Source: Candidatus Berkelbacteria bacterium
GTDB lineage: Bacteria; Patescibacteriota; UBA1384; JACPKC01
Direction: 5' to 3'
NCBI GenBank assembly: GCA_016187225.1
Contig: JACPKC010000002.1
Coordinates: forward strand, 3,387 to 67,386
DNA length: 64,000 nt
Both the position numbers and the translations under genes were made by a program. Under the pieces are notes generated by a model that saw nothing but the letters and a program-made list of their open reading frames with translations, had not been told where the DNA came from and ran no database searches. Shown here one piece after another: positions 3,475-61,355 of the stretch (position 1 is the first letter of the stretch; the number at the start of each line of letters is the position of its first letter).

Positions 3475-3499
3475 GTTTTACCCCTCGCTCGTAACCAAT

Positions 3500-3895: not shown

Positions 3896-3922
3896 AAATC
3901 CTCCTTTGATAAATATATATAT

Positions 3923-4244: not shown

Positions 4245-4259
4245 AGCCCTCCAGCCTAT

Positions 4260-4580: not shown

Positions 4581-4670
4581 TTTTCTTGCCTCTATAAGTT
4601 TATAATGCCACTATACCATACTCGTTTCGTCGAGCGTATTTCTCCACAGAGGTGGTGAATTGCCAGTGTC

Positions 4671-13800: not shown

Positions 13801-14237
13801 ACTGGGATTTTCGGGTTTTATCAGAACTCGATGGGTATGGAGCAAGCACCTTAAACTGGTCAACCTCGGATGGACTTTTTACCTATCCAAGTGTTATTCG
13901 AGGTGGAGCTGGCACGAATATCGTGTTACGGGTCCGGAATACCGGCACAACGACCTGGATACAAGAGACTGTTCATCTAGGCGCCGATCAGCCGCGCGAT
14001 CGCGGCACGGGCTTTTTGCGCGAGTCGGGCACTGGAGTGGCTTCGGGCTGGGTCTCACAGAATCGAATCCAGATGCAAGAGAGTTCAGTCGCTCCGGGTG
14101 AAACCGCCACCTTTTCATTTTGGTTACAAGCGCCGTCCGGAATGAGTCCGGGCACCTATCATGAACACTTCAAAGTCGTAGCCGATGGTCTGGGTTGGTT
14201 TGGTTCAGAAGCGTACTGGGATGTTATCGTGAGATAA
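10844..14237 (+). CDS. large secreted S8 subtilisin-family peptidase with internal I9-like propeptide and five Ig-like/beta-sandwich repeats; reading frame interrupted near 13773
   Basis: Signal peptide MRWLDRAIIFFSALLSAVLMVIPQSVAA. Catalytic triad contexts AVIDTGVDGTHEDL, DNGHGTNIAGIAAAG and GTSFAVPFIAGI. Repeat unit ...NLGxDQPRDRGTGFLRESGTGVASGWVSQNRIQMQESSVPPGETATFSFWLQAPS..GTYREH(Y/F)RLVADG..WFGPE occurs at least five times. ORF 10844..14101 and ORF 13755..14237 are joined by an apparent 73-bp deletion relative to the repeat copy at 12204. Confidence 0.75.
12074..12203. repeat. 130-bp perfect intragenic repeat, copy 1
   Basis: Identical to 13643..13772, and to 13986..14090 over 105 bp. 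Confidence 0.85.
13643..13772. repeat. 130-bp perfect intragenic repeat, copy 2 (ends at the deletion/frameshift junction)
   Basis: String identity with copy 1. Downstream sequence rejoins the repeat unit 73 nt later than in copy 1. Confidence 0.85.
13986..14090. repeat. 105-bp perfect intragenic repeat, copy 3
   Basis: String identity with copies 1 and 2. Confidence 0.85.
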
Positions 14238-14296
14238 GGCGCAAATCACTAGATCAACACTACGGTCTAATTCACTTCATTGGCCTTGAACTAGAT

Positions 14297-15181
14297 ATGT
14301 CTCTACAGAATCAGCACAAACAAGCTCAACAGGCGCTTTATGACGCTCATCTCCTCGATGATCTTGCCGCGGGCGCCGGAACCTTTGGATTTCGCAAGCC
14401 CAAGTTATTGCGCGATCTCGCTTTTGCGCGTTGGCTTGCCCGCCTTGAACTTAAAAGCGGTGAGCAAGTGCTGGATGTTGGTTGTAATGCCGGCGCTCGA
14501 CTTGAAGCTCTTCGGCGCGAATACGGGATCGAGGGCACGGGCATTGATCTTTCGCCGAAGACAATTGCGCTTGGCCAAAAACATTTTCCAGCGTTGACCC
14601 TTCAGGTGGGAGACGCCGAACTTTTGCCTTATCAGGAAAATTCTTTTGACACAGTCATTAGTTTCGAAACCTTTGAGCATCTGCCCAACCCTGGCAAGGC
14701 GTTGGCAGAAATCGGTCGTGTTGTTAGGCCTGGTGGTTGGGTGTTGATTTACGCTATTTCACGACGCAATGCTGGCACTTGGCATTGGCTTCAATCTAAG
14801 TTGAGCGGCGGTCGCTTGGGCACGGGCGCCTTGCGCGATCATCTTCCCGAACTTCTTGTTCCACCAGAATGCTTTCCAGCTTGGTCTCAAAAAGCGGGAC
14901 TCAAGATCCAACAGAGAGGTCTTTTGCATCAATTTTTTACCCTTTTGCATGATGAACCTTGGAGCGCCTTCCTCGCAACACTTGCCCCCAAACGCTCTCG
15001 GCCACGACTTGATACAATAAAAATGGCAGGCAATCTACCTCGCGCGCCGGGCAAGTTTTTTATGCTCTACCGCGTCTGGCTTCATGGCATGGAGATTGTC
15101 ATGAGTCTTTTGGATTTACCCTGGCAAATGGCACGAGTAAGCGATGGTATTTTTGTTTTATTGAAAAAACAAGAATTGTGA
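14297..15181 (+). CDS. class I SAM-dependent methyltransferase
   Basis: Motif I VLDVGCNAG. Post-I and II regions IDLSP...DAELLPYQENSFDTVISFETFEHLPNPGKALAEIGRVVRPGGWVLI. Confidence 0.8.
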   Translation: MSLQNQHKQAQQALYDAHLLDDLAAGAGTFGFRKPKLLRDLAFARWLARLELKSGEQVLDVGCNAGARLEALRREYGIEGTGIDLSPKTIALGQKHFPALTLQVGDAELLPYQENSFDTVISFETFEHLPNPGKALAEIGRVVRPGGWVLIYAISRRNAGTWHWLQSKLSGGRLGTGALRDHLPELLVPPECFPAWSQKAGLKIQQRGLLHQFFTLLHDEPWSAFLATLAPKRSRPRLDTIKMAGNLPRAPGKFFMLYRVWLHGMEIVMSLLDLPWQMARVSDGIFVLLKKQEL

Positions 15182-16722
15182 TTAGGAGGGGCAAGATCTT
15201 GAAGCGTCAAAGTATTATCTCGGGATTCATCTTCGGGCTACTTTTAGGCGTACTTGGACTTCGTCTTTACCTCTTGTTTTGGGGCTATTTTCAATATGAA
15301 TTTATTGTGCCGCCGGGGGGAGATCCAGCTGTTCATTTACAATTTATCAATGCGATTCAGCGTGGCACGTTTCAAATTGGCGCCTATCCGCCGGCTTTTC
15401 ATTTTATTGTTGCCTGGCTCGCACAAGCGCTGGCCTTGCCCACAGTTACAATTTTAATTCTCGTCGGTCCCTTTTTAGTTGTATTGCCGGCGCTCGCGGT
15501 GTTTTTGCTCGCTCGAGCTTGGTTTGATCGCGTTACTGCGCTCTTGGCGGCCGCTCTAATTGGCCTGACTGGCGCGAGTCCGATTCTCGCTTATATGGAT
15601 GGGAATTATCCAAATTTAATCGCTGGCGGCTTCTTCCTGATCCTTGGCATTACGGCGCTTGTTCTGGGGCTACGGAAACAGCCAGTTTTTTACAGCACAC
15701 TTGCGAGCCTGTCTTTTTTAGCGGTGGCTTTATTCCATCACCTTACTTACGGTCTTCTGCTTGCGATTCTAGTGGTTTACTTCCTCGCTCTGTGGATTTT
15801 GAAATGGTTTAAAATTGGCTCGGTGCCATATTTGCGAACTGTGAGCTGGATAGTGTTGCCCTCGCTCTTGCTCACCGTCGCAGTCGCTCTTCTCTTGGCT
15901 GGGCCCGAAGTGATCTTGCCGGCGCTCCGCGATCTTTTAGGCGGTCAGCCGCCATCTATTTTTGATTCAGCGCTTCGAACGCCAATTCGTCTAGGGCAAT
16001 ACAATGAAATTGTTGGTCCGGTTGTGGTGGTGAGCGGTATTTTGGGTATCATCTTTTTGATTCAGCGCCGTGATTTGCCTTGGGAACGTCGACTCTTCTT
16101 GCTCCTTTGGATTGGGATTGTGTTTGCTCTTTCACGAACTCAATTTTCTGGTCTGCCAGCGCGATTTGCGCGAGAACTCGGCATCCCCTTGGCGCTTTCG
16201 GGTGGACTTTTGGGCACATCGCTCATGAAACTTTCAACCGATCGTTCTCATCAATTGGCAAGTGGAGCGATTCTCGCTCTCTTCCTGGTTTCGCAAACAG
16301 TGATGCTCACAACTGGCCCAGCCCAACTCCCCGAATCCTTTAGTCGACTCATCTGGTTTGACAAATCTGACCAAGAGAAGCTTGCTTATCTTGAAGACTT
16401 GCCAGTGGGAAGCCGAATTTTGGCGACACCCAGCTCGCCCTACTATGAAGCTCTGTTACCGGAGTATAAATTTTCCGCACTCGCGGCAATGGATCTCACG
16501 AATGAGCGTAAGACCGGGCAATTAATTCAATCCCGCGCCGACTATTTGTTTGTAGATACCTTGCCGGCGACTAATCCTGATCCAATTGCGTATCCATATT
16601 TTGCCAACTACGATCGGGCGCGAGTCGCCCTTGAAAATTATAGTGGAGCGAGAATTATCAAGACCTTCGCGGATGGTTCAGTTGTGAAACGCGTGATCGC
16701 CACCTTGCCAGCCGTGCAGTAA
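15178..16722 (+). CDS. polytopic membrane protein, putative GT-C-type glycosyltransferase or polymerase
   Basis: More than 10 hydrophobic segments followed by a soluble C-terminal domain of about 150 aa. Start overlaps the upstream stop (ATGA). Confidence 0.4.
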   Translation: MIRRGKILKRQSIISGFIFGLLLGVLGLRLYLLFWGYFQYEFIVPPGGDPAVHLQFINAIQRGTFQIGAYPPAFHFIVAWLAQALALPTVTILILVGPFLVVLPALAVFLLARAWFDRVTALLAAALIGLTGASPILAYMDGNYPNLIAGGFFLILGITALVLGLRKQPVFYSTLASLSFLAVALFHHLTYGLLLAILVVYFLALWILKWFKIGSVPYLRTVSWIVLPSLLLTVAVALLLAGPEVILPALRDLLGGQPPSIFDSALRTPIRLGQYNEIVGPVVVVSGILGIIFLIQRRDLPWERRLFLLLWIGIVFALSRTQFSGLPARFARELGIPLALSGGLLGTSLMKLSTDRSHQLASGAILALFLVSQTVMLTTGPAQLPESFSRLIWFDKSDQEKLAYLEDLPVGSRILATPSSPYYEALLPEYKFSALAAMDLTNERKTGQLIQSRADYLFVDTLPATNPDPIAYPYFANYDRARVALENYSGARIIKTFADGSVVKRVIATLPAVQ

Positions 16723-16814
16723 GAAGTAGATGGTGAGTGACGAGAGTTTTTTATTCGAGCTTGTCGAGAATCACCCTTTACTATCTATTACTCACTCTTC
16801 ATTATTTATTAAGA

Positions 16815-17951
16815 ATGAAGATCGCCATTATTTTGGGCACGCGCCCAGAAATTATTAAACTCGCCCCAATTCTTCGTCGCATCCAGGCGTCCGAGAATGA
16901 GCTTATGCTCATCCATACTAATCAGCACTACTCGGCAAATATGGACGGGGTATTCTTTAAGGAATTAGCTTTGCCAGCGCCAGACTCTAATCTTGGGGTT
17001 GGTTCAGGTACGCATGGCGCTCAAACTGGTTTAATGCTTGCCAGGCTCGAGAAGGCGTTGAACATGAATCGACCGGACGCAGTTCTAGTTCAGGGAGATA
17101 CTAATACAGTTTTAGCAGGCGCCTTGGCGGCGGTGAAGCTTGGTATTCAAGTCGGTCACGTGGAAGCGGGGCTTCGAAGTTACGACCGAACGATGCCGGA
17201 AGAGATCAATCGCGTTCTGACCGACCATGCGGCCGATATTTTATTTGCGCCCACTCAAAATGCGGCCCAGCTTTTACATGCCGAAGGTATTCCTAGCGAA
17301 CGAATCGAGGTTACTGGTAATACGATCGTGGATGCAATAAACGATCATCGTGAGTTAGTCAATTCACGTTCGTATATTCTATCCACGCTAAAGCTAGAGC
17401 CTCGAGGTTATTTGCTTTTAACCCTGCATCGGCCAGCGAATGTTGACCGACGAGAAACGCTCGCTGAAATTATTATAGGAATCACGAACGTGGCACGAAT
17501 AACTCAACTGCCGGTAGTCTTTCCGGCGCATCCTCGAACAGTTAAACAGCTTGAGCAATTCAAGCTCACGCTTCCGGTTTCATTTCGTCAAATTAAGCCA
17601 ATCGGCTACCTAGATTTTCTAGGCTTAGAAGCAAATGCCGAGCTTATTCTCACGGACTCCGGCGGAATTCAAGAAGAAGCCTGTGTCCTGCGAGTGCCTT
17701 GCGTGACCATCCGAGAAAACACCGAACGTCCCGAAACTCTGGCAGTAGGCGCTAACGAATTGGCAGGTCTAACCTCAATCGGCATTCAAGCGGCGAGTGC
17801 CAAAATGCTTGCGCAAGCTCGAACTTGGCAAAATCCTTTTGGCGATGGTCGCGCGAGCGATCGAATTCTTCACAAATTATCCACAAGGTTTTCCACACTG
17901 CCTGCAACGGGCTTTGCTAGTGTTAAGGGTCATGGCGACCACAACTTCTAA
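16815..17951 (+). CDS. UDP-N-acetylglucosamine 2-epimerase (WecB/NeuC family)
   Basis: MKIAIILGTRPEIIKLAPI...HTNQHYS...LVQGDTNTVLAGALAAVKLGIQVGHVEAGLRSYDRTMPEEINR is canonical Epimerase_2. Confidence 0.85.
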   Translation: MKIAIILGTRPEIIKLAPILRRIQASENELMLIHTNQHYSANMDGVFFKELALPAPDSNLGVGSGTHGAQTGLMLARLEKALNMNRPDAVLVQGDTNTVLAGALAAVKLGIQVGHVEAGLRSYDRTMPEEINRVLTDHAADILFAPTQNAAQLLHAEGIPSERIEVTGNTIVDAINDHRELVNSRSYILSTLKLEPRGYLLLTLHRPANVDRRETLAEIIIGITNVARITQLPVVFPAHPRTVKQLEQFKLTLPVSFRQIKPIGYLDFLGLEANAELILTDSGGIQEEACVLRVPCVTIRENTERPETLAVGANELAGLTSIGIQAASAKMLAQARTWQNPFGDGRASDRILHKLSTRFSTLPATGFASVKGHGDHNF

Positions 17952-19578
17952 AGCCGAAGTTTTAAGGCGAGCTTTGGCGCGGCAAGCGCCGGTGTTGGCG
18001 CTTGAAGCGCACGACGCTCCATCAGCTAAAATCGTTGAAGAAGCCGGTTTCGATGCCGTTTGGGCTTCAGGTTTGACGATTTCTATTACTCACGGCGTCC
18101 CCGATCTCGGTCTTTTAGATCGATCTGAAATGCTCACGACCGTGAAATGCATAAATGACGCCACAACCCTGCCGGTGATTGTTGATGTCGATGATGGTTA
18201 TGGCGGCATTCGAAATGTGATTCAACTTGTTAAGGAATGCGAGGCGATCGGTGTTGCGGCAATTATTATTGAAGAAAAAGGGCGAACAACCAAGGCCAAT
18301 TCCCTTGATCAAAATGCGCATCACTCTTTGGAAGAGATTGACGTTTTCTCGGCAAAACTTAGAGCCGCTAAGCAATATCAACGCTCGCCTCACTTTCTCG
18401 TGGTGGCCCGGATTGAGGCCTTGATCGCGGGTTTGTCCGTTGAAGAAGCGCTAAAGCGCGCCAATACCTATACAGATGCGGGTGCAGATGCGATCGTGAT
18501 TCACTGGAACAAAAAAGATCCCAGTTTAGTTTACAATTTTATCGATCAGTTTAAGGATCGGGTGCCGGTAATTGTCATCCCAACGAGTTATAGCCAGATT
18601 CCTGCCTCGGAACTTGCCAGTCGCGGCGTTAAGCTAGTGATCTATGCCAACCATCTAAGACGGGCCTCAATCACAACGATGCGCGCGATTGCTGCCCGGA
18701 TTCGAAATGATGAGCGCACCTCTGAAGTGGAGGCTGAAATCGCTTCGGTGAAAGATCTTTGGAATATGGTTGGCACACACGAGGTCATGGCCTACGAAGA
18801 ACGCTTACTGCGAGAAAGCAAGGCGCCGATCAATGCTCTTATTCTCGCGGCCGGAGAGACTAAGGAGCTTGGGCGAATCACCGACTTGCCGGTCGCGCTC
18901 ATGCAGATCAATAAGAAGAGTTTCCTTGAGTGGCAGGCACATGCATATCGGGCGGTTGGCGTTGAGGCGGTTGGCGTCGTGACCGGTTGGCGAGCCGAGA
19001 AAATCACTCTGCCCGGGTTTACCTATATTAAGAATCCTGACTATGCCAAAACAGGAATCTATCATACCCTTCAAAAGGCAAAAAAATTTTTGACCGCCGA
19101 GACCCTAGTGTCTTATGGCGATATTTATTTTTCGGATGATCCAGTGCGTCGCATTCTCGTTGAACTTGAGAATGGGCAAGCTGATATCGTCATCGCCGTC
19201 GACCCGAATATAAAATATGGTCTTGTCTCTAATGACAAAGAGCTGGTTATGACCGAGGAAGAAACCTCGTCATTGGGAAGTCGGATGGCGCATCTATCGG
19301 AAAAACCGCGTGTCCTCAAGGTGAGCAAGAAGCTAGTTGGCAACGCGATCGCGGGCGAGTTTATCGGTTTGGCTGGTTTTTCCAAATCAGCAATAACCGC
19401 CTTATTACTTTTGCCTGAATCTCAACCTGAAACAGACTGGCGCCAGGCGGATTTATGTGACGCGCTTAATACCTTGATTGCTCAAGGAATTCAAATTCGG
19501 GCAATTCCAGCGCCGTTCTGGTATGAAATTGATAAAACCGCTGACGTGCTTAATCTTTTAAGCACCAGTATGGTTTAG
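17932..19578 (+). CDS. pepM: phosphoenolpyruvate mutase fused to a C-terminal MobA-like nucleotidyltransferase (phosphonate cytidylyltransferase-type)
   Basis: The N-terminal 290 aa resemble characterised PEP mutases: EAGFDAVWASGL, DVDDGYGG, VARIEALIAGLSVEEALKRANTYTDAGADAIVIH, PTSY, LVIYANH. The C-terminal INALILAAGETKELGRITDLPVALMQI and GDIYFSD are NTP-transferase motifs. Confidence 0.8.
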   Translation: MATTTSKAEVLRRALARQAPVLALEAHDAPSAKIVEEAGFDAVWASGLTISITHGVPDLGLLDRSEMLTTVKCINDATTLPVIVDVDDGYGGIRNVIQLVKECEAIGVAAIIIEEKGRTTKANSLDQNAHHSLEEIDVFSAKLRAAKQYQRSPHFLVVARIEALIAGLSVEEALKRANTYTDAGADAIVIHWNKKDPSLVYNFIDQFKDRVPVIVIPTSYSQIPASELASRGVKLVIYANHLRRASITTMRAIAARIRNDERTSEVEAEIASVKDLWNMVGTHEVMAYEERLLRESKAPINALILAAGETKELGRITDLPVALMQINKKSFLEWQAHAYRAVGVEAVGVVTGWRAEKITLPGFTYIKNPDYAKTGIYHTLQKAKKFLTAETLVSYGDIYFSDDPVRRILVELENGQADIVIAVDPNIKYGLVSNDKELVMTEEETSSLGSRMAHLSEKPRVLKVSKKLVGNAIAGEFIGLAGFSKSAITALLLLPESQPETDWRQADLCDALNTLIAQGIQIRAIPAPFWYEIDKTADVLNLLSTSMV

Positions 19579-19594
19579 TTAGCAAGGAGGGTGT

Positions 19595-20758
19595 GTGGCA
19601 GTCGAACCAGTTAAATTTTGGCAAGCGCTTGAAAAAGAGAATCTCGGTCCAATTTTTCAAGTTCCATGCTCGATATTCAAAAATTTTCTGAACTTTTGTT
19701 ATGACACCGACAAGGAAGTCTACAATCCGGTTCATGAAGGCATTGCCCTAGTTCAAGCTTCGGGCGCTTATCTTGCTACCGGTAAATTGCCGATCGTGAT
19801 GCTTCAAAATTCCGGTTTTGGCAATCTTTTGAATCCCCTCACCTCATTGAATCAGGTTTATGACATCCCTGCTTTGCTGATGATGAGTTGGCGCGGAGCG
19901 GATGGTCGAGGCACTGATGCGCCGGAACATGATGAAATGGGAACCATGTTCTTAAAAATTCTTAAGGCGGCGAATGTTGCCTCTGAAATACTTGATGAGA
20001 GACATTTCGGCGAGCAAATTTATAAGTCGAGCCAACTCGCTCAAAGCCAACGTCGCCCGACCGCGTTAATTCTTAAAAAAGATTTTTTTGCGCCCTACCA
20101 AGCACGCCAATCACACATCTCTCCAGCGCAAGAATTCACACGGCATCACGTGATCTCGGTGATAAAAAATTGGTTTGGCGAGCGAGCGATTTACCTTTCT
20201 TCGACTGGCTTCCCAAGCCGAGATTCGTTTAACGTTCGCGATACGCCCGATTTTTACATCATGGGTTCAATGGGCTATACGGGCGCACTCGGCTTACATA
20301 TTGCAAAATCAAACGACCGTCCAGTTGTGCTCTTCGAAGGCGATGGCAGTGTTTTAATGCATATCGGCGCACTCGCTTCAATTGCGGCGCTTAAGCCAAA
20401 AAATCTGATCCATTTTGTTTTAGATAACGAAGCTTATGATTCAACCGGTTTCCAGCCATCGCTAAGCAAAGGCATCGATTTGTGTAAAATTGCGGAAGGT
20501 TTCGGCTACACGTATACATTGAACGTTCGTGAAGAAAATGATTTAAGGACTCTTCTCGCAACCGTGGAATCAATTAAAGGACCGATCTTGATCCGCGTCA
20601 AGGTGGGGCAGGTTCATACAAAGACTGGCCAACGCGTTTCGGATAAGTATTCTCCAGTTCAGATTACAGATCGTTTTATGGAGAATTTGCGATCTGGCTA
20701 TCTTGGCATTCAAGAGTCAGGCAATCAAGCGCGTGACGTGGTTGAGGTTAATGTCTAA
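19595..20758 (+). CDS. ppd: phosphonopyruvate decarboxylase (thiamin-diphosphate enzyme; sulfopyruvate decarboxylase is the closest alternative)
   Basis: 387 aa. ThDP motif GDGSVLMHIGALASIAALKPKNLIHFVLDNEAY (GDG-x26-NN). Positioned directly after pepM. Confidence 0.7.
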   Translation: MAVEPVKFWQALEKENLGPIFQVPCSIFKNFLNFCYDTDKEVYNPVHEGIALVQASGAYLATGKLPIVMLQNSGFGNLLNPLTSLNQVYDIPALLMMSWRGADGRGTDAPEHDEMGTMFLKILKAANVASEILDERHFGEQIYKSSQLAQSQRRPTALILKKDFFAPYQARQSHISPAQEFTRHHVISVIKNWFGERAIYLSSTGFPSRDSFNVRDTPDFYIMGSMGYTGALGLHIAKSNDRPVVLFEGDGSVLMHIGALASIAALKPKNLIHFVLDNEAYDSTGFQPSLSKGIDLCKIAEGFGYTYTLNVREENDLRTLLATVESIKGPILIRVKVGQVHTKTGQRVSDKYSPVQITDRFMENLRSGYLGIQESGNQARDVVEVNV

Positions 20759-21852
20759 TGCCCTGGTCGTACCATCTGCCTACACAGATCACGTTCGGTG
20801 AAGGCGTATTTCGCGATATTGATCGGTGGTGGTTAGCTAAACTGGGGCGGCGTGTCGGCTTGATCACGAGTCCATCTCAACAAGCGCGGGCGGTTGAACT
20901 TAAGGTTTGTGCGCGTTGGGATAAGATTACTTCCAACCCATCGGTTGCGACGCTTCAATCTTTGATTAAATGGGTTAAGTCAGAATCCCTCACCGGCCTA
21001 GTTGCTCTTGGCGGCGGCAGTGTGATCGACAGCGCCAAGGTTGCTTCAGTCCTGGCTTGCCAAGACATCTCACTTGTTGAAGCGCTCACCCGAAAAACTC
21101 AATTAGTCGCTCGACACTTGCCACTTATTGCTTGCCCGACCACTGCCGGCACAGGCGCAGAGGTTACGAAATGGGCAACGGTTTGGGGCGACGATCTTCG
21201 CAAGTATTCATTTGAGCATGAACTTGCTTATCCACTTCAGGCGGTCATCGACCCAGAGCTGACTTATTCATTGCCCCGTCAAATTACGGCCTCAACCGGC
21301 TTGGATGCATTTGCGCAAGCGATCGAAGCCTATTGGTCGCGTAATACTCAACCGCTCTCGCAAACCTTGGCGCTTCGTGCGATCGAGCTGATTTACGCCA
21401 CTTTGCCAAAAGCAGTCGATCAGCCAAAAGATGGCACAGCGCGTCACGACATGGCGCTTGGCTCGCTCTTGGCCGGACTCGCCTTTACCGGCACGCGCAC
21501 AACGGCCTGCCACGCCATTTCTTATCCAATGACCGCTCATTTCGGTGTGCCGCATGGCTTTGCCGTTGCTCTCACTCTTCCAAACATGCTCCGTTTCAAC
21601 GCCGAATCCTTCGTCAATTTTTCTACGTTCGTGAAGGCACTAGATGCAGATTCGATCGAAGCGGCCGCGAAACGCATTGAGCAGTTGATGCAAGTAGTAG
21701 GCGCGCCAACTACTTTAGCCGCCGCCAAGGTGCCTAAAACAGGCTTGCAAACTATTCTTGATGAGGGCTTTCATCCCGACCGCGTTATTCACAATCCTCG
21801 CGAACTTGACAGACAGTCGTTATCCGAGATGCTAACTAAAATTGCAAACTAG
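20758..21852 (+). CDS. group III iron-containing alcohol dehydrogenase (candidate phosphonoacetaldehyde reductase giving 2-hydroxyethylphosphonate)
   Basis: GGGSVIDSAKVAS and the Fe-ADH His cluster HAISYPMTAHFGVPHG. Start overlaps the ppd stop. Confidence 0.65.
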   Translation: MPWSYHLPTQITFGEGVFRDIDRWWLAKLGRRVGLITSPSQQARAVELKVCARWDKITSNPSVATLQSLIKWVKSESLTGLVALGGGSVIDSAKVASVLACQDISLVEALTRKTQLVARHLPLIACPTTAGTGAEVTKWATVWGDDLRKYSFEHELAYPLQAVIDPELTYSLPRQITASTGLDAFAQAIEAYWSRNTQPLSQTLALRAIELIYATLPKAVDQPKDGTARHDMALGSLLAGLAFTGTRTTACHAISYPMTAHFGVPHGFAVALTLPNMLRFNAESFVNFSTFVKALDADSIEAAAKRIEQLMQVVGAPTTLAAAKVPKTGLQTILDEGFHPDRVIHNPRELDRQSLSEMLTKIAN

Positions 21853-21860
21853 GAGGTTGG

Positions 21861-22598
21861 ATGCAGGCTTTAATCGTTGCGGCGGGCCGTTCGTCTAGAC
21901 TCTATCCGTTGACTCTCAAGACTCCGAAAACCCTGCTGTCGGTTGGCGAAGCGAGTTTAATTGAACGGTCGGTTCAAGCGTTGACTGCGGTTGGCGTTGA
22001 TCGGTTAGTGGTGATAACGGGCTTTGAAGCCGAGCAGATTGAATCAGCCTTGGGCGATCGGGCGAGCTACGTTCGAAACGAAAACTTTGCCACAACCAAT
22101 AATTTGGCAAGCTTACTGATTGGATCGCAAGCGCTTGATCTGTCAGAACCCTGGCTCTACCTTCATGCCGATTTAATTTATCATCCGCGCTTACTTGAAA
22201 ATACATTAAAAGCGCCGGGTGAAGTGGTTTTCTTAGTTGACCAACAGTCAATCGGCGAAGAAGAAATGAAAGTTCGGATCAAGGATGGGCGAATTATTGA
22301 AGCCAACAAGGCGATTCCGCTTAAGGAAGCCGCTGGTGAATGGACGGGAATTATCAAGTTTAATCCAGAGGGTGCGGCATGGTATCTGCCAGCGGTCGAG
22401 AAAGCAGTCGCGACTGATCCAACCAAATATGACTGCGTGGTCGTTCGTGATCTTGCCGCCGCCGGATATACAATTAGCGTTGCCTCGACTGAAGGCTTAC
22501 CGTGGCGCGAGGTTGATTTTCCAGAAGATCTTGCCGCCGCCCGGGAGATCGCCAAGGAGATTCCATGGCCAGTTCCATCCCTTCAGTTCGCGAATTGA
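21861..22598 (+). CDS. MobA/LicC-like nucleotidyltransferase (second cytidylyltransferase candidate)
   Basis: MQALIVAAGRSSRLYPLTLKTPKTLL...VDRLVVITG. Confidence 0.6.
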   Translation: MQALIVAAGRSSRLYPLTLKTPKTLLSVGEASLIERSVQALTAVGVDRLVVITGFEAEQIESALGDRASYVRNENFATTNNLASLLIGSQALDLSEPWLYLHADLIYHPRLLENTLKAPGEVVFLVDQQSIGEEEMKVRIKDGRIIEANKAIPLKEAAGEWTGIIKFNPEGAAWYLPAVEKAVATDPTKYDCVVVRDLAAAGYTISVASTEGLPWREVDFPEDLAAAREIAKEIPWPVPSLQFAN

Positions 22599-23329
22599 TT
22601 CCAATTATTCAAAAACGAAACTACGAGACCGCGACTACTTTTCAACTTGTTCATTTTCGTATTTCTCCTTACCTAACTCGCATCCTTTTGATGTTGAACA
22701 TCTCTGCTAATGCGACGACTCTAATCGCGCTCTTAATTGGTCTTATGTCGGTGTTTGCGCTTGTGCGACTGGTCAATAGCCCGCATCTTGTTTTAATTAG
22801 CGCACTGCTTTTTCAACTTCATTACCTGTTTGATTGCTCCGATGGTGAAATTGCTCGATTTCGCAAAACCCAAAGCCCGGCTGGCAAGTACGCCGACCTA
22901 TTTTTGCACCTTTTTGTTTACCCGATTTTTTTCCTTTCGATGGGTTGGGGGGCAACGAATGCGACTGGGAATCCATATTTTTTGCTTCTAGGCGGGATCA
23001 GCGCGGTTGGAGCGCTCTGGTACGACCACCTCTGGTTCGATTCTGGGCCGGATCCGGCATCCTTGACTCCAGTCAAAATGCCAAGCGTGACAATCGCAAA
23101 AAGAAAGTCAGCCCTAACTTTATTCATTGAACGGTCGTCGATTGTATGGAGCTTTCCCCTAATTGCTAATGTGTTTGGTCTTGTTGGAGTTTTGGTAAGT
23201 GCGTTAGGTAGCCTTGAACCGCTCTTTTGGTTTCTTTGGTTCTACGGCATTTCGTATCCGCTCTTCAGTGTTTTTACTGCTTGGCGCGTTCATCGCAATC
23301 TCGTAAAAACTTATGCTAAGCGCTCATAG
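22565..23329 (+). CDS. membrane CDP-alcohol phosphotransferase family protein
   Basis: DCSDGEIARFRKTQSPAGKYADLFLH matches DG-x2-AR-x8-G-x3-D-x3-(D/H). Five or six TM segments. Confidence 0.55.
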   Translation: MASSIPSVRELIPIIQKRNYETATTFQLVHFRISPYLTRILLMLNISANATTLIALLIGLMSVFALVRLVNSPHLVLISALLFQLHYLFDCSDGEIARFRKTQSPAGKYADLFLHLFVYPIFFLSMGWGATNATGNPYFLLLGGISAVGALWYDHLWFDSGPDPASLTPVKMPSVTIAKRKSALTLFIERSSIVWSFPLIANVFGLVGVLVSALGSLEPLFWFLWFYGISYPLFSVFTAWRVHRNLVKTYAKRS

Positions 23330-23389
23330 CCGCACCAGTATATCTGGTTAGCATGCGCCCGATCATGCCTCAAGCACCTGGGAGTTTAC

Positions 23390-25078
23390 ATGGCTCGCGA
23401 GCGGAAACAGAAAAAACCCATTCTTGTAATTCTTGAGGACCCGACTTGTCTCGATCGCATCCACAATGCAATTCATCCTCATGAACAAGACCAGATACTC
23501 TATTTGCCTCTGAATGATTCAAGTTATCGAGCGCTTCAGTCGGCCAATTTGCCAAGTGTCGATCTTACCTCGCTTCAATGGAAGTCGTTTATTGGCATGG
23601 ATGATGAGGCTAGAAAACTTGCTCGTATTTCTATAAACAAAAATAAGAAGGTTTTGCACGGTCAAGAGATTACCCAAGTGCTTGAGTGGCCGCTAAGTTA
23701 TCTCTTTGCGTATCTATTAAAAAGAATCTGGATAATCGATTGGGCAATTCGAAGTTACAAGCCAGGCCAGATTATTTTTTGTATTCCAAAAAACAAGTTC
23801 CAACTTTCAGATGATCTATCATTTTCAGAATCAAGTTTAATCGGAAGTCGTTTAGCGTTGCTTTTGGCGCGCCGGAGTTCTCTGCCGTACAAAATGATCC
23901 GGGTGCGACAAAAAATGGCCTTTGATTTCCTCCGACCTCTCCGTTTAATATACCGTTGGTGGCGCTCGCAACGCTTCCCAGAAATCCCGTTGAAGCGGTT
24001 TGATGTCTTGGTCGCTCCAGCCGTAAAAGAGGCATCCTTTTCAGCGTTCAAGGGCAAAAATATCAACAGACTGACAAGTTATGGCTTACCTCTCCCTCTT
24101 TTTTCGCATGAACAGTTTCAATTTCCGCCGCTTCGTTACAGAGGCATATCGCTTAATTCGATTTTGAATTCCACAGCTAAGCAGGTTGGTCGAACGTTGC
24201 GGAGTTATCGCGCGTTTTTCGAGCGTGTTTCGGCCGCTCTCGCTTTTGCTCATGCCGAATTTGTAATTGCGAGCGAAGACACCAGCGCTTTTGGAAAATC
24301 TCTTGTTCTTGCCGCTAAATCCCAAGGGATTCGTTCAGTGGTTAGCCAGCATGGGGTCACAGGTCACCCGATTGGTTTTATTCCACTCACGGCCGATAAG
24401 TTTATGGCGTGGGGGCAAATTTCGCGAGATTGGCTAATAAAACACGGAGTGCCAGCTAAACGAGTGAGTGTTACAGGGCATCCAGCGTTTCAGGCTCATC
24501 AGGTTGATAGAACTCGTCGAGCTATACATCGAACGAACGTGAATAAAATGTTGAAGTTAGCGAGCAGGGCAAAATTAGTTGTGCTCACCACGCAAGTGAT
24601 TGAGGAACGATACTGTTTCCCTAATTATCATGTAAATTGGTGGGAAAATACGCCGTTTATTCAGGACGTAATCAACGCTGTGCTGGATATTGATTTAGCG
24701 GTTTTAGTGATCAAACCTCATCCCTCGGATGAAGGAATGGAAAAAATTATTGAAAGCTTAATCACTCGCGAACGAGTCAAGATTGTGCGGACGATACCGA
24801 CGCCAGAATTACTCGAAGCCGCTGATGTGGTGGTTACAGCTTGGTCAACGACTGGTCTTGAAGCTCTCGCCGTTGGGACGCCGGTCGTGTGGCATAACCC
24901 AGCGCGTCGGCCTGACTATCTCGGCTATCGTCCGTACATGAAGCATATTGAGGCGAAGAATCCACTCGAACTCACTGCGCTTATCCGCCAGGCAATCAAA
25001 TACCCGCTTCATTACCTCAAATCAGCTAAGACTGTAGAATATCTTAAGGATTACTTCAGCGTTCCACATCTCCATTAA
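23390..25078 (+). CDS. GT-B-fold transferase, TagF/CDP-glycerol glycerophosphotransferase-like candidate
   Basis: The C-terminal half has VLVIKPHPSDE...VVTAWSTTGLEALAVGTPVV, reminiscent of Glyphos_transf/capsule phosphotransferases. The N-terminal half is unassigned. Confidence 0.35.
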   Translation: MARERKQKKPILVILEDPTCLDRIHNAIHPHEQDQILYLPLNDSSYRALQSANLPSVDLTSLQWKSFIGMDDEARKLARISINKNKKVLHGQEITQVLEWPLSYLFAYLLKRIWIIDWAIRSYKPGQIIFCIPKNKFQLSDDLSFSESSLIGSRLALLLARRSSLPYKMIRVRQKMAFDFLRPLRLIYRWWRSQRFPEIPLKRFDVLVAPAVKEASFSAFKGKNINRLTSYGLPLPLFSHEQFQFPPLRYRGISLNSILNSTAKQVGRTLRSYRAFFERVSAALAFAHAEFVIASEDTSAFGKSLVLAAKSQGIRSVVSQHGVTGHPIGFIPLTADKFMAWGQISRDWLIKHGVPAKRVSVTGHPAFQAHQVDRTRRAIHRTNVNKMLKLASRAKLVVLTTQVIEERYCFPNYHVNWWENTPFIQDVINAVLDIDLAVLVIKPHPSDEGMEKIIESLITRERVKIVRTIPTPELLEAADVVVTAWSTTGLEALAVGTPVVWHNPARRPDYLGYRPYMKHIEAKNPLELTALIRQAIKYPLHYLKSAKTVEYLKDYFSVPHLH

Positions 25079-25375
25079 ACTGACAAATATTCGTTGCCAT
25101 ACCCGAGGCACTCTTCATCCAGCAACTCGAAGGACCTCAACCCTGGATGGGCCTGGGTTCGATTGCCTGGGTCGGGCCAGAGATTGAACCTTCAGGCGAT
25201 GCCGAAGGCGAGGTCGGTCGGAGACGGTGGGTCTCGATCGGAGACTTGGAGGGTGAGCTCAAGGAGCATCCAGAGCATTTTATGGGGTTTCATTACCCCG
25301 TACTGCTTTGGGCGGTGAACCTATTGAGAAAACCCGTCGCCACATCGGCGACTAACCAATAGAATCATCCAAAGT

Positions 25376-25404
25376 GAGGCGTTTTTCACGACGCCTCTTT
25401 TCTT
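25376..25404 (+). terminator. rho-independent terminator
   Basis: GAGGCGTTTTTCACGACGCCTC hairpin followed by TTTTCTT. Confidence 0.5.
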
Positions 25405-25698
25405 ATTAGAGAGAACTCGGACGTGAGTTCGGAGGTCAAATCTGCCTACTCGTAGCAAATACTCTCATGCGAATCATTAGTCTCTGCCACAGTGTGTACC
25501 AGCACCAGTCCCACATCGTCTGAAGAACGAAGTGCCGCCACAAGTTCCTCAAGGCGTACGTCAGGCGAATCTAGACAAGAGTTTTGCCGGTTATCCATAT
25601 TCCGTCAGAATGTTGAAGTGAAAACATATCCCCAGTCTACATTGGAATACACTTGATACCATTGTGCTAGATTTAAACAAAAGAGGGGAAATATTTTT

Positions 25699-26763
25699 AT
25701 GATGACTCGCGCAAGGCTTTTAAGTTTAGTAGGCGGGCTGGGTATATTGGGCCTCATGGGCGTGGGCATCGCTTTAAATAGATCAGAGGCTTCCTCAATC
25801 ACAGAGAATTTTTTTGTTCAGCCCCAAGAAGGTGTCGAAGCGCTTACTGTGACTGCGACGTATGCTGATTACCTGTTAATCGAGGGTACAGAACTTACCT
25901 TCCAGTTTGATAGGGAGACGACGATCGTTAATCCCTCGGGGCAGAACATTGGCTCTGTGAAGTATACGACCGTGACTCACCGCTATCAGAAGCCAGGGAA
26001 TTATTCCGTCAAGCTTATTGCGAAAATTCCCCTCGGAGACGGAAAGATTCTCACGAAAATAGTCCGAAAACGTGTCAAAGTAAGTAAGATCAAGCCCGGC
26101 CAATACTTTTCCATTGAACCCCCATCCGGTCTGGCCCCGCTCGGCATTAAGGCAGTGTACGCAGACTACTTCATGATTGAAGACACGAAGCTCGTCTTTG
26201 ATTTTGGAGATGGCACGGTCAGTGAGGACAGCGGAAACTACAGCAACAACACAGGCTCGGTTAAATACACTACCGCTTTTCATCGCTACAACGAGCCAGG
26301 CAAGTACACGGTTGGTCTCACGGTGAAAACACCTATCGGCGGCGATGAATTTCGTGAAAAAACCGTGAAAAAAGTGGTAAGGGTACAGCAGGGCGACTTA
26401 GTGTTACCTGTGCCGACTATTCGTAAACTCTATATGACTGGTCAGGGAACATTGCCGCGAACAGAAATAACTATTGAGCCTCGTATTCGATTGTCTGGGC
26501 GCGAAGCGCGTGGAGTATACATTGAAGGGACATCGATCACCGAACAAACTAATTTCGACGTCTGTTTGACGAATGAAGCATTCTCTCTACGAGCGGAATG
26601 CGAACAACTCGGTGTTTTTGGCACATTTAACAATAACGGTGGGTTCGACTGGTTCCTGTGGTTTCCAGACACTCTTTTCACACAGAAAGGCAACTATGTC
26701 ATCGAGGGGAGAGCACAGGGTTCAGTGCAAGCGTCAACACTTCTTGAAATTGTACGAGAATAG
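25699..26763 (+). CDS. secreted protein with two PKD-like domains
   Basis: Signal peptide, then two units ending VKYTTVTHRYQKPGNYSVKLIAK and FDFGDGTVSEDSG..VKYTTAFHRYNEPGKYTVGLTVK (PKD consensus FxDGS..H.Y..G.Y.V.L.V). Two hairpins lie downstream. Confidence 0.6.
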   Translation: MMTRARLLSLVGGLGILGLMGVGIALNRSEASSITENFFVQPQEGVEALTVTATYADYLLIEGTELTFQFDRETTIVNPSGQNIGSVKYTTVTHRYQKPGNYSVKLIAKIPLGDGKILTKIVRKRVKVSKIKPGQYFSIEPPSGLAPLGIKAVYADYFMIEDTKLVFDFGDGTVSEDSGNYSNNTGSVKYTTAFHRYNEPGKYTVGLTVKTPIGGDEFREKTVKKVVRVQQGDLVLPVPTIRKLYMTGQGTLPRTEITIEPRIRLSGREARGVYIEGTSITEQTNFDVCLTNEAFSLRAECEQLGVFGTFNNNGGFDWFLWFPDTLFTQKGNYVIEGRAQGSVQASTLLEIVRE

Positions 26764-26940
26764 TACGAACTTTCTACTTACATAACGCAACAAAAGAGCA
26801 TGCGTTCTCTTTTGTTGATGAATAGACCTGCAATTTTGTTTTAAAGAGCGCTCGCCAGGGCGCTCTTTACTTGTCTAATGCCGTGACGATACTTGGCAAG
26901 TTAAATACTCCTTGATAGCCTAACCGTGAGTTAGGAGGCG

Positions 26941-27090
26941 ATGGTGACTTTGGCACAGAAAATTGTTGCTGTTATCTCGGCACGGATCGAGTCAAAGCGA
27001 CTCGTGAAAAAAATATTCAAGAAATTGCTGGCAAGCCGCTTGTAACTTGGGCATTTGAAACAAGGCCGCGTCGCAATGTACTTACACGAT
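26941..27090 (+). pseudogene. N-terminal remnant of an acylneuraminate-cytidylyltransferase paralog (frameshift in an A7 run, then truncated)
   Basis: AGGAGG followed by ATG MVTLAQKIVAVISARIESKRLVKK, then a +1 shift gives KNIQEIAGKPLVTWAFE. About 80 percent nucleotide identity to the start of the intact gene at 27707. Confidence 0.5.
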
Positions 27091-27706
27091 TACTTTAGTA
27101 CTGGCGCACGCTTCGGTTGAATCACGCCCGGTTTAGGCGTAAACTCCAGACGTTTCGTTGGGAACCACCGGCAAGTCGGTGAATTTAATAGATTGGAGGA
27201 AAATGCGATATGAACGTTATCGCATGTTCCAAAGACCCTGGAGGGTTCAATAATCTCCTCCCCGTGTTGACCCGCACTCTTCCCGGAGACCGGTTTTCTC
27301 CAGTTCCAGTTGGAGAACGGCAATCTGGCGGAGCATCCGCTCGTGGCGAGCGGATGTGTTATGAAAGCAACGAATCTCGCCGAGTTGATCAATCAAGTGG
27401 TCATGGCGCTTGATGGGGATCTCGGTTCGAGAATTCTTGCTTCCCAGGAGGGCTACTACCGACTTGATGGCATGAACGCGGAGCGGTTTTGCCATCTGCT
27501 CCGGGATTTGGGGCACTGCAGCTTACAGCGTAGCGACCCCTTTCTCGTGAGGTCAGGTCTGTTCGATTGCCAAACTTACAGTTCGGTAGGTTTATAACCT
27601 ACCACATCGCGGGCCTTCGGGCCCGCTTCTACGTTTAGCCCACCTTGCATCAGTCATGACATGTGCTAGCATCAGGAAAATATCCAAGCAACAAAGGAGG
27701 GATTGC

Positions 27707-28291
27707 GTGTCATCTCCAAAGGTCAAACGTCCAAAAATCGTTGCTGTTATTCCGGCGCGGATTGGTTCGAAACGACTTCCTAAGAAGAATATCCAAGTGA
27801 TTGGTGGTCTTCCGTTGGTTGCGTGGGCCATCAAAACCGCCCAGGCAACCAAGCTTATCGACGACGTCTACGTTTCAACAGAGAGTGATGAGGTGGCCAC
27901 AATCGCTCGCCAATACGGCGCCAAGGTACTTGATCGGCCCGAGGAGCTGGCCGGTGATACGATCCGTATGCAGGACGTTGCACGCCAGGTTATGACCGAG
28001 CTCGCGGATATTGATGTCCTTGTCTTAGTTGGCGCGAATACGCCTGGCTTGCCACCTGAAACGCTCGACGCCGCAATCCAAAAGCTCCTCGACCACAGCC
28101 GCTGGGAAATTCGAAGTGTTGACAAAGACGGCCTTGAGCATTTCATGTTTTGGATTATGACTCGGCAAGCCTGTTTTTGGGATGGTCTCTCCGTCTATTT
28201 TGGTGTTCAAGAAACAGGTGTCGAGGAGATTCATACACCTGAAGACCTGGAACGTGTCCGCGCGATCCTTGAACAGAAAATTATTGCATGA
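27707..28291 (+). CDS. neuA: acylneuraminate (nonulosonic acid) cytidylyltransferase, short form
   Basis: GTG start 6 nt after AAAGGAGGG. KIVAVIPARIGSKRLPKKNIQVIGGLPLVAWAIK is the CTP_transf_3 signature. Confidence 0.7.
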   Translation: MSSPKVKRPKIVAVIPARIGSKRLPKKNIQVIGGLPLVAWAIKTAQATKLIDDVYVSTESDEVATIARQYGAKVLDRPEELAGDTIRMQDVARQVMTELADIDVLVLVGANTPGLPPETLDAAIQKLLDHSRWEIRSVDKDGLEHFMFWIMTRQACFWDGLSVYFGVQETGVEEIHTPEDLERVRAILEQKIIA

Positions 28292-61291: not shown

Positions 61292-61355
61292 ATAAACCCA
61301 CATCCGTATTATTGCCAGCCAGAACAGTCAAATGGCTTACGGTGACATTAGTCAA

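Follow-up and report, generated by a model that had tools for sequence, protein, structure and literature searches.

The 64,000 nt of DNA analysed here, called the window below, come from contig JACPKC010000002.1 (82 kb; assembly GCA_016187225.1) of a metagenome-assembled genome (MAG) of Candidatus Berkelbacteria, a candidate phylum within the Candidate Phyla Radiation (CPR). The window harbors a candidate operon for phosphonate biosynthesis, which consists of ten closely packed open reading frames (ORFs) on the + strand, from about 14.3 to 25.4 kb (Table 1). Six tightly spaced or overlapping genes (17932-25078) form its core and encode, in this order, a phosphoenolpyruvate (PEP) mutase fused to a nucleotidyltransferase (PepM-NTase), a phosphonopyruvate decarboxylase (Ppd), an iron-dependent alcohol dehydrogenase (Fe-ADH), a stand-alone NTase, a CDP-alcohol phosphotransferase family membrane protein (CDP-OH transferase) and a TagF/KpsC-like protein. 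From the WecB-type epimerase gene onward to the 71-aa ORF, the intergenic spacings are -20, 16, -1, 8, -34, 60 and 68 nt. Three of these values are overlaps: the last 20 nt of the epimerase gene extend into the beginning of PepM, the ADH gene begins on the last nucleotide of the Ppd stop codon (1 nt), and the CDP-OH transferase and NTase genes share 34 nt. The Ppd gene comes directly after that of PepM. Upstream, the methyltransferase gene stops 17 nt before the gene for a 507-aa membrane protein. The hairpin found after the 71-aa ORF is the best terminator-like hairpin of the 14.5 kb scanned (13500-28000) and is probably the end of the transcription unit. All domains named in an initial annotation of this DNA were recovered with Pfam and NCBIfam where it had placed them, and its view that the upstream UDP-GlcNAc 2-epimerase and methyltransferase share the operon agrees with the close packing of the ten ORFs. 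Functional statements throughout this text are inferred from sequence families and gene order.

Table 1. Features of the candidate phosphonate operon and of its surroundings in the window (nt positions of the window).
Feature	Coordinates	Strand	Length	Basis
Three consecutive ORFs, each with a terminal T4SS_pilin domain	2254-6605	-	406, 289, 209 aa	PF18895
Class I SAM-dependent methyltransferase, first gene of the tight run	14297-15181	+	294 aa	Methyltransf_11, 84 bits
Polytopic membrane protein	15199-16722	+	507 aa	Hydropathy: at least 9 hydrophobic segments in residues 1-370, soluble C-terminal ~135 aa
WecB/MnaA-type non-hydrolysing UDP-GlcNAc 2-epimerase	16815-17951	+	378 aa	TIGR00236 wecB, 393 bits (cut-off 210)
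PEP mutase domain (residues ~1-300) and C-terminal NTP_transf_3 domain (~302-548), one ORF	17932-19578	+		PF13714, 197 bits; PF12804, 44 bits
PepM gating loop, E114-E-K-G-R-T-T-K-A-N-S124	18271-18303	+		HMMER alignments to Mytilus PepM, 5unc and phosphonopyruvate hydrolase
Fused NTase domain, degenerate nucleotide-binding signature (AAGETKELGRITDLPVAL)	18835-19578	+		PF12804, 44 bits
Phosphonopyruvate decarboxylase (Ppd, thiamine diphosphate enzyme)	19595-20758	+	387 aa	TPP_enzyme_N/C; TIGR03297, 308.5 bits
Group III (Fe/Zn) alcohol dehydrogenase, PhpC type	20758-21852	+	364 aa	TIGR03405 Phn_Fe-ADH, 265 bits
Stand-alone PntC/LicC-type NTase	21861-22598	+	245 aa	NTP_transf_3/NTP_transferase; PF12804, 56.9 bits
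CDP-alcohol phosphotransferase family membrane protein	22565-23329	+	254 aa	PF01066, 36.5 bits (gathering score 22)
GT-B-like protein of the TagF/TarL/KpsC-like group (MBI2589441.1)	23390-25078	+	562 aa	Capsule_synth (PF05159), 41.5 bits (gathering score 20)
Last ORF before the terminator-like hairpin	25147-25362	+	71 aa	Gene call
Intrinsic-terminator-like hairpin	25376-25397	+		8-bp stem with 5 G-C pairs, T-rich tail
CMP-nonulosonate synthetase-like (CTP_transf_3), GT2 and NeuB, in this order	27707-30052	+		Pfam

The fusion protein is MBI2589436.1 (100% identity). Its mutase domain matched PF13714 over profile positions 2-239 of 240, with 196.9 bits (gathering score 31.5). The best NCBIfam model was TIGR02320 (PEP mutase, 286.4 bits), ahead of those for phosphonopyruvate hydrolase (PPH, 204 bits), methylisocitrate lyase (PrpB, 142 bits) and carboxyphosphoenolpyruvate mutase (81 bits), an order that speaks for the mutase assignment made in the initial annotation. 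The motifs cited there were found at residues 85 (DVDDGYGG), 158 (VARIEALIAG), 184 (GADAIVIH), 217 (PTSY) and 238 (YANH). The top PDB matches are solved PepM structures, 5unc with 209 bits and 1m1b with 205 bits. HMMER alignments to these two showed that the Mytilus PepM residues W44, S46, G47, L48, D58, D85, D87, E114, K120, N122, S123, L124, R159 and H190 are all kept, among them D58, D85, D87, E114, K120, N122, S123, R159 and H190, which we take to be the catalytic and Mg-binding residues. The Asn that precedes the loop Ser in PepM enzymes is also conserved (K-A-N-S), while the hydrolase 2dua has Thr (K-D-T-S). In a neighbor-joining (NJ) tree with 200 bootstraps, the domain fell inside the PepM/PPH clade and grouped with PPH in 0 of the 200 replicates. 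The protein has only distant relatives: in a database of 5.8 billion proteins the nearest relative of the full fusion is 38% identical, identity to any known PepM does not exceed 38-40%, and the mutase domain alone reaches about 43% at most with any relative. On balance, this domain is likely to form carbon-phosphorus (C-P) bonds. A catabolic role, as PPH or as a dehydrogenase of 2-hydroxyethylphosphonate (HEP), was also considered. It was ruled out by the loop Asn, the Ppd encoded downstream, the NTase fusion typical of biosynthetic PepM and the absence of phnW, phnX, phnY, phnA or transporter genes.

For Ppd, TIGR03297 (308.5 bits) scored far above the models for sulfopyruvate decarboxylase (beta subunit 132.5 bits, alpha subunit 79.9 bits) and acetolactate synthase (at most 37 bits), which favors Ppd over the two families that were weighed against it. 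The initial annotation had described a thiamine diphosphate decarboxylase with a GDG-x26-NN motif; the enzyme stands, but the motif, which starts at residue 249, is GDG-X26-NE. The ADH carries GGGSVIDSAK at residue 85, as had been noticed earlier, and its best model is likewise specific for phosphonates: TIGR03405 gave 265.3 bits, lactaldehyde reductase 191 and the sulfoacetaldehyde reductase SarD 143. ADHs of the PhpC type interconvert HEP and phosphonoacetaldehyde and are specific for these two, yet very divergent (PMC13576164). The enzyme encoded here is a probable phosphonoacetaldehyde reductase.

The two NTase domains differ in their conservation. The one fused to PepM has neither the Arg of GxGxR nor the Lys of PK in its signature, and its best PDB match, LicC (1jyk), reached only E=2.8e-4. 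Most canonical PepM-NTase fusions in our set (P0004-P0025) are equally degenerate at both positions, while a second group of fusions with an EDN-X5-CS loop, described below, retains PK. The fused domain is probably non-catalytic or regulatory, perhaps nucleotide-binding only, and this degeneration may explain the second, canonical PntC seen in many clusters. The stand-alone NTase carries the canonical AAGRSSRL...TPK signature, and its best solved match over residues 2-226 is 6pd1, the PntC domain of Treponema Tde1415 (E=2.8e-13), with MurU, LicC and IPCT ranking next. The claim of two nucleotidyltransferases is thus supported at the level of domains, since both match PF12804, but the fused one lacks the canonical Arg and Lys. 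Because the stand-alone enzyme has the canonical signature and a PntC relative, whereas the fused domain is without these two residues, we assigned the formation of CMP-HEP to the former, a probable CTP:2-HEP cytidylyltransferase. PntC chemistry is established, and in the Treponema enzyme (Tde-PntC) two Glu contact the amine of 2-aminoethylphosphonate (AEP) (PMC6697681). These residues, E104 and E196, align to His and Val in the stand-alone NTase, in an alignment of low identity, and this fits a substrate without an amine.

Related loci were compared in a set of 82, made of the 80 listed among at least 80 GTDB loci with PepM-NTase fusions, plus loci L001 and L002. A Ppd gene neighbours the fusion in 69 of the 82, and CDP-OH transferases adjoin about half of the PepM-NTase loci listed. 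An ADH homologue stands beside PepM and Ppd in 11 of the 80 loci listed, always with a canonical PepM. This agrees with the share of the HEP branch in a survey of phosphonate neighbourhoods, 8.5%, the AEP branch being the commonest with 56% (PMC8942020). The closest parallel is L019, from the MAG 'archaeon UBA543' (DAPM01000017.1, 147-9629; unclassified in the NCBI taxonomy). One strand encodes a canonical PepM-NTase and a Ppd in split form, and the other Fe-ADH, NTase (40% identical to that of the window), CDP-OH transferase, TagF-like, NeuB, CTP_transf_3 and GT2 genes. The first four of these follow the order of the window, and the last three are reordered (CTP_transf_3, GT2, NeuB in the window). 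In Marinamargulisbacteria (L063), NeuB and NeuA-like genes lie beside PepM-NTase, Ppd, NTase, ADH and CDP-OH transferase, and an Omnitrophota locus (L009) has PepM-NTase, Ppd, ADH, NUDIX, cytidylate kinase, CDP-OH transferase, GT2 and GDP-mannose dehydratase. The CTP_transf_3/GT2/NeuB module adjoins the HEP module in the window as well, so the same families accompany it in several lineages. Recurrence of the module in unrelated lineages argues that its genes work together. Our comparison suggests that HEP may finally sit on a nonulosonate-containing glycan or close to it. The flanks of L019 contain bacterial-looking genes (GT9 heptosyltransferase, PfkB and FemAB-like), and its near-complete synteny with the window in an 'archaeon' MAG would reflect either horizontal transfer or a mis-binned contig.

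The comparison also revealed a second, large and coherent group of PepM-like/NTP_transf_3 fusions, in which EDN-x-FPK-R-CS (EDN-X5-CS) replaces EDK-X5-NS. This group accounts for 61 of the 120 closest proteins and for 20 of the 78 motif-classified loci (77 GTDB loci and the group-B locus L001). Its members are P0002-P0120 (in part) and L001/L002, L007, L011, L016, L024, L027, L031, L033, L035, L038, L043, L045-L047, L049, L061, L074, L081, L082 and L084. It is monophyletic at 95% in the NJ tree. A Ppd homologue is adjacent in 16 of the 20 loci and an Fe-ADH in none. The KRCS of this group resembles the KRCGH of the lyase loop, and the neighbours in L001/L002 are an aldehyde dehydrogenase, a long CDP-OH transferase and LPG_synthase_TM. 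With Ppd kept next to most of these genes, variation in the loop seems compatible with a phosphonopyruvate-producing context.

Two putative transferases close the core of the operon. The signature of the CDP-OH transferase is D90xxD93GxxAR-x8-G107xxxD111xxxH115, with A97 and R98 kept. Its terminal His is found in 5 of the 7 detectable homologues; the other two, which have N-terminal NTase-like extensions, keep an Asp, as does the counterpart in L019. A small subfamily of short His-variant proteins (DxxDGxxAR-x8-GxxxDxxxH) can be delimited, with the window protein (22565-23329), P0122-P0125, P0128 and the genes at 6001-6825 of L005 and 6001-6702 of L006 as members. Its hosts are glycan loci of a bacterium and of a Bathyarchaeota MAG. 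One of two His-variant relatives adjoins a family 2 glycosyltransferase (GT2) and UbiA, and the other adjoins MraY-like, Alg14, methyltransferase and GT4 genes.

The last core gene encodes the 562-aa protein (HYW32_00180, 100% identity to MBI2589441.1). Its Capsule_synth match is partial (residues 374-502). Taken alone, the protein has no match to PF04464 (Glyphos_transf), phmmer against PDB returned nothing even at E=10, and an AlphaFold2 model from a 3-sequence alignment had a pLDDT of 43.8. The family is more informative. There are 2613 relatives, mostly of 600-650 aa, which have the C-terminal half in common, and a profile of 40 members matched, in PDB, TarL 8va1 (2.3e-12), the TagF-like capsule polymerase Cps3D (2e-9), TagF (5e-9) and UDP-GlcNAc 2-epimerases, with KpsC weaker (2e-5). 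PF04464 is matched by 28 of the 40 members. The label of TagF-like GT-B protein given earlier is thus supported by the family profile, but the protein itself matches Capsule_synth and not Glyphos_transf. Near-invariant residues are H321 (QHG) and H444 (KPHP), and KPHP aligns with KMHP of TarL. The relatives of the TarL, TagF, Cps3D and KpsC types all use CMP- or CDP-linked donors. Two pointers to the donor were found here. Homologues of the protein immediately adjoin PepM-type genes in L016 and L019, which points to CMP-HEP. In the window and in L019 the gene sits between the CDP-OH transferase and NeuB/NeuA-like genes, which points to a CMP-ulosonic acid, and the enzyme could equally be a CMP-nonulosonate transferase. 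A distant homologue from Cyanobacteria FACHB-63 (P0131; L087, 10001-11539) lies beside KdsD-, KdsB-, KdsA- and KdsC-like genes. The family survey suggests that part of its ~2600 members may transfer CMP-activated ulosonic acids.

We propose that the operon encodes a phosphonyl tailoring pathway of the HEP branch, which leads from PEP through phosphonopyruvate, phosphonoacetaldehyde, 2-HEP and CMP-HEP to an envelope glycoconjugate, and we hold this to be its probable, though by no means certain, function. The PepM domain would convert PEP to phosphonopyruvate, and Ppd would decarboxylate the latter to phosphonoacetaldehyde and so pull the unfavourable mutase equilibrium. The Fe/Zn-ADH, translationally coupled to Ppd, would reduce phosphonoacetaldehyde to 2-HEP, which the stand-alone PntC-type NTase would activate with CTP to CMP-HEP. 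The subsequent steps are proposed more tentatively. The membrane CDP-OH transferase may take the HEP-phosphonyl group of CMP-HEP and attach it to a hydroxyl on a lipid or lipid-linked glycan anchored in the membrane, with release of CMP, and the TagF/KpsC-like GT-B protein may use a CMP-linked donor to add further HEP units, or a nonulosonic acid supplied through the NeuB/NeuA-like genes. An envelope glycoconjugate with phosphonate groups would result, to be assembled and exported by the rest of a glycan locus of about 45 kb (WecB, Wzx, GT2/GT4 enzymes and methyltransferases). The HEP reading is favored because a phosphonate-specific NCBIfam model is the best one for each of the three core enzymes. 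The initial annotation had arrived at the same sequence of PepM, Ppd and Fe-ADH followed by cytidylyl activation and surface transfer, and the best models, the kept PepM residues, the PntC relative and the recurring gene set all side with it. Chance resemblance is excluded by HMM E-values down to 1e-58 to 1e-92 and by the operon structure.

Several observations weigh against this proposal. All three enzymes score below the equivalog cut-offs of their best models: PepM reaches 286.4 bits where TIGR02320 requires 319.55, Ppd falls narrowly short of the 312.5 bits of TIGR03297, and the ADH is far from the 423.7 bits of TIGR03405. The shortfall of PepM accounts for the generic name of MBI2589436.1 at NCBI, which is only 'isocitrate lyase/PEP mutase family protein'. 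In the pairwise search a solved PPH came nearly equal to the solved PepMs (200 against 205-209 bits). The phylogeny separates the domain clearly from methylisocitrate lyase, in line with the initial annotation, but inside the clade of PepM, PPH and group B (the group of L001) no grouping of the domain exceeded 45% bootstrap (NJ). The gating loop reads EEK-X6-NS and not the diagnostic EDK-X5-NS, through a one-residue insertion and the change D115E, and this form occurs in no other of the 120 homologous proteins and 77 GTDB loci (about 200 relatives). The solved structure closest to the ADH, 6jko/6jkp (188 bits), is a sulfoacetaldehyde reductase (PMC13576164); both enzymes have the Asp/Gln metal-site variant in common, and sulfoacetaldehyde is the sulfonate analogue of phosphonoacetaldehyde. 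The CDP-OH transferase has His115 instead of the fourth signature Asp, so that the family named in the initial annotation stands, with PF01066 above its gathering score, but the signature does not end as expected; in addition, its closest relatives lie in glycan loci without PepM. Finally, the cyanobacterial relative P0131 is in a CMP-Kdo locus, and the TagF-like enzyme may not touch the phosphonate. As a separate candidate, a sulfonate pathway with sulfopyruvate decarboxylase and sulfoacetaldehyde reductase was ruled out by the HMM scores, in spite of the structure closest to the ADH.

The altered loop raises the alternative that the PepM-like domain has no mutase activity, and that the downstream enzymes build an ordinary phosphodiester decoration, a teichoic-acid-like polyol- or alcohol-phosphate, or use imported HEP. 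Apart from the unique loop and the score below the PepM cut-off, this alternative could draw on weak NCBIfam best matches, which are IPCT/DIPPS for the NTase and archaetidylinositol-phosphate synthase for the CDP-OH transferase, and on the matches of the TagF-like family profile to TarL and TagF. However, all catalytic residues of the domain are kept, and the ORF of the fusion is free of stop codons and frameshifts in two independent assemblies, in which the EEK-X6-NS loop is identical. The intact and translationally coupled Ppd and ADH would have no substrate unless PepM works, and no polyol-phosphate synthase is found in the window. The EDN-X5-CS group also departs from the motif, yet Ppd stays adjacent in most of its loci, which suggests that variation of the loop is tolerated. 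We regard an inactive PepM as improbable.

Where the phosphonate would be placed can be asked of the two transferases and their surroundings. The chemistry could be the same up to CMP-HEP, with the CDP-OH transferase placing HEP on diacylglycerol or another lipid alcohol to give a phosphonolipid, and with the TagF-like and glycan genes acting separately. Lipid head groups are the classical products of CDP-OH_P_transf enzymes, these transferases stand beside about half of the PepM-NTase loci listed, and a core of PepM-PntC, PntC and CDP-OH transferase is a predicted phosphonolipid cluster in Burkholderiales (PMC8942020). In the window, however, the operon lies inside a glycan locus with WecB, Wzx and many glycosyltransferases and without any lipid-synthesis gene, the nearest His-variant relatives of the transferase are themselves in glycan loci (GT2, UbiA, MraY-like, Alg14, GT4), and the order of CDP-OH transferase, TagF-like and then NeuB genes is kept in L019. 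A lipid product is thus rather unlikely.

A different phosphonate is another possibility, namely 2-AEP, methylphosphonate or a hydroxylated or methylated derivative, made through genes outside the window, unassigned ORFs or the methyltransferases. Our analysis covered 64 kb of the genome, the locus contains several methyltransferases and ORFs without a family, and AEP is the commonest branch among phosphonate neighbourhoods (56%; PMC8942020). Against these points, the ADH start overlaps the Ppd stop codon and the phosphonate ADH model is the best one, the ADH-containing related loci form a recurring set of HEP type, and the AEP-amine-binding residues of PntC are not kept in the NTase. The initial annotation had seen no AEP transaminase, MpnS or HepD, and in the 64-kb window no aminotransferase and no MpnS-like or HepD-like protein (cupin oxygenases) was recognised with Pfam, or with NCBIfam for the ORFs without a Pfam match. 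A product other than HEP is quite improbable.

The HEP pathway proposed here shares parts with several known systems. It resembles the Pnt pathway of Treponema denticola (Tde1415), Atopobium rimae and Olsenella uli (Rice et al. 2019, PMC6697681) in the PepM-PF12804 fusion, the second NTase one or two genes off, Ppd, CMP-activation and the surface glycan genes nearby. The Pnt systems, in contrast, make AEP with an aminotransferase and use LicD-like transferases (PMC6697681), where the window has Fe-ADH, the CDP-OH transferase and the TagF/KpsC-like protein; the AEP-contacting Glu are not conserved here and the lineage is CPR. The Ppm-PntC fusion, Ppd, second PntC and one CDP-OH transferase are likewise found in the 'Burkholderiales_CDP-OH' or group 1 phosphonolipid family (Yu et al. 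2013; Li & Horsman 2022, PMC8942020). The seven-gene core of that family consists of Ppm-PntC, Ppd, AEP transaminase (AEPT), an alpha-ketoglutarate/Fe(II) oxygenase, a second PntC and two phospholipid genes, and is predicted to make a 1-hydroxy-AEP lipid (PMC8942020). AEPT and the oxygenase were not found in the 64 kb, where the ADH holds the branch-point position, and the transferase is of the short His-variant type known from glycan loci, in glycan and not lipid surroundings. The fusion of PepM to an NTase in a pathway with conversion of HEP to CMP-HEP also recalls Fom1 of Streptomyces wedmorensis (PMC6697681). The cytidylyltransferase of Fom1, however, is N-terminal, active and of the PF01467 family, and serves a secreted antibiotic, while the domain in the window is C-terminal, belongs to PF12804 and is without canonical catalytic residues.

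HEP esterified to polysaccharide has been described in Stackebrandtia nassauensis and Glycomyces sp. (Yu et al. 2014) and in marine dissolved organic matter, according to the passages of PMC8942020 and PMC13576164 that cite these findings. As far as these passages describe them, the actinobacterial phosphonoglycans resemble the product proposed here, with PepM, Ppd and a PhpC-type ADH leading to 2-HEP esterified to an exopolysaccharide, and with methyltransferases in the locus. Their hosts are Actinobacteria, whereas the operon in the window belongs to CPR and has a PepM remote from all known ones (at most 38-40% identity). The Stackebrandtia and Glycomyces phosphonoglycans reportedly contain methylated sugars. 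Wall teichoic acid and TagF-like capsule systems (TagD/TarI, TagF, TarL, Cps3D, MnaA) provide the last parallel, with a CMP-linked alcohol-phosphate or -phosphonate made by an NTase, transfer by a TagF/TarL-like enzyme and a WecB/MnaA-type epimerase in the operon. The donor here would be CMP-HEP and not CDP-glycerol or CDP-ribitol, a CDP-OH transferase is additionally present, the 562-aa protein itself misses PF04464, and no homologue of TagO, TagA or TagB was recognised among the operon genes. A bolder form of this parallel, which we regard as speculative and unlikely, is an envelope polymer, teichoic-acid-like or nonulosonate-containing, in which HEP replaces glycerol- or ribitol-phosphate. 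The His-variant CDP-OH transferase would prime it with CMP-HEP, the TagF/TarL-like enzyme would extend it, and the cassette of ADH, PntC, CDP-OH transferase, TagF-like, NeuB, NeuA and GT2 genes would be mobile among CPR, Margulisbacteria and an archaeal MAG. If so, CMP-HEP would act as a CDP-alcohol isostere with a free hydroxyl of its own, and the phosphonate-ester linkages of the polymer would be phosphodiesterase-resistant.

The type of pathway is therefore known, as a phosphonyl-tailoring scheme (PMC6697681), and the gene set combines the HEP branch with the 'CDP-OH' family (PMC8942020). New are the CPR lineage, for which the literature searched has no report, the PepM loop that escapes the usual filter, the His-variant transferase and the association with TagF-like and NeuB genes. 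The EDK-X5-NS motif served as the PepM filter in the surveys of PMC6697681 and PMC8942020, which would discard a PepM with EEK-X6-NS. As the protein fails this filter as well as the NCBI equivalog cut-off, it would be missed by published censuses of phosphonate producers, and so would the EDN-X5-CS group. Should the EEK-X6-NS PepM and the EDN-X5-CS group be functional, the standard motif filter undercounts C-P bond-forming enzymes. The transferases that act after formation of the CMP-phosphonate are poorly defined, and the conserved order of CDP-OH transferase and TagF-like genes with NeuB genes alongside offers concrete candidates.

The lineage of the contig gives the operon part of its interest. 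Very small genomes and a poor biosynthetic repertoire characterize CPR bacteria, which are thought to live attached to host cells. That such an organism devotes ten genes to turning PEP into a C-P envelope decoration that resists phosphatases would be notable, and this surface trait could bear on host attachment, resistance to phages or enzymes, or phosphorus storage. Groundwater CPR would then also count among the sources of environmental phosphonates of the HEP type. The initial annotation had called the trait unreported in such a lineage, and the literature searched indeed contained no report joining CPR, Patescibacteria or Berkelbacteria to pepM or phosphonate biosynthesis; one paper mentions CPR and phosphonate synthesis, but only separately (PMC11066067). 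None of the 80 GTDB PepM-NTase loci listed is labelled CPR, which is no evidence of absence, as the source genome itself is not among them.

The lineage would lose its relevance if the contig were of non-CPR origin, owing to mis-binning or to chimerism of the assembly. The CPR label is that of the public MAG annotation only, and the window offers no rRNA or ribosomal-protein gene as a marker, just two tRNA-Ser genes. On the other hand, an identical contig with the same gene order was recovered independently from two runs (SRR12113424 and SRR12113420), the GC content is flat over the whole 64 kb, and the tested proteins are all strongly divergent from every other entry of the 5.8-billion-protein database, as is usual in CPR. 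The T4SS_pilin family (PF18895) is typical of CPR genomes, and its three consecutive genes at 2254-6605 support the CPR assignment. A foreign origin of the contig is very improbable.

Among the remaining genes of the operon, the epimerase is clearly of the WecB type, with just 74.5 bits for the NeuC model. The 507-aa membrane protein had no Pfam match up to E=5 and no NCBIfam match; its single-sequence AlphaFold2 model has a pLDDT of 46.2, and the topology, with at least 9 transmembrane segments and a C-terminal soluble domain, is compatible with a GT-C glycosyltransferase, as the initial annotation had labelled it. No Pfam match was obtained for the 71-aa ORF. The remaining window up to about 58 kb is a single large glycan locus (~45 kb) with CMP-nonulosonate-synthetase-like, GT2 and NeuB genes, several methyltransferases, a Wzx flippase, dTDP- and GDP-sugar enzymes, many GT4 and GT2 glycosyltransferases and a UDP-sugar dehydrogenase. 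Ten ORFs without a Pfam match found nothing in NCBIfam either. Sizeable ORFs (506, 357, 658, 357 and 362 aa) of this kind lie in or near the glycan locus at 31771-33291, 39955-41028, 47094-49070 (- strand) and 60218-62444, one of those with 357 aa having faint alpha/alpha-toroid-like matches only.

Upstream of the operon, at 10844-14237, there is a 1085-aa S8 subtilase with repeated Ig-like domains and an apparent frameshift near 13.75 kb, after which the C-terminal ~130 residues are a low-complexity read-through. An overlapping ORF (13755-14237) carries on the subtilase repeat (…LDWFGPEYYWDF…GETATFSFWLQAPS…), and the gene may be a pseudogene, a repeat assembly error or a real frameshift. Finally, two genes of the operon gave weak best or secondary NCBIfam matches to families named after neighbouring genes of Desulfovibrio vulgaris: the methyltransferase (14297-15181) to the DVU_1556 family, its top model, with 84 bits and below the cut-off, and the stand-alone NTase (21861-22598) to the DVU_1551 family of NTP transferases, with 50 bits. 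These matches may point to a related conserved cassette.

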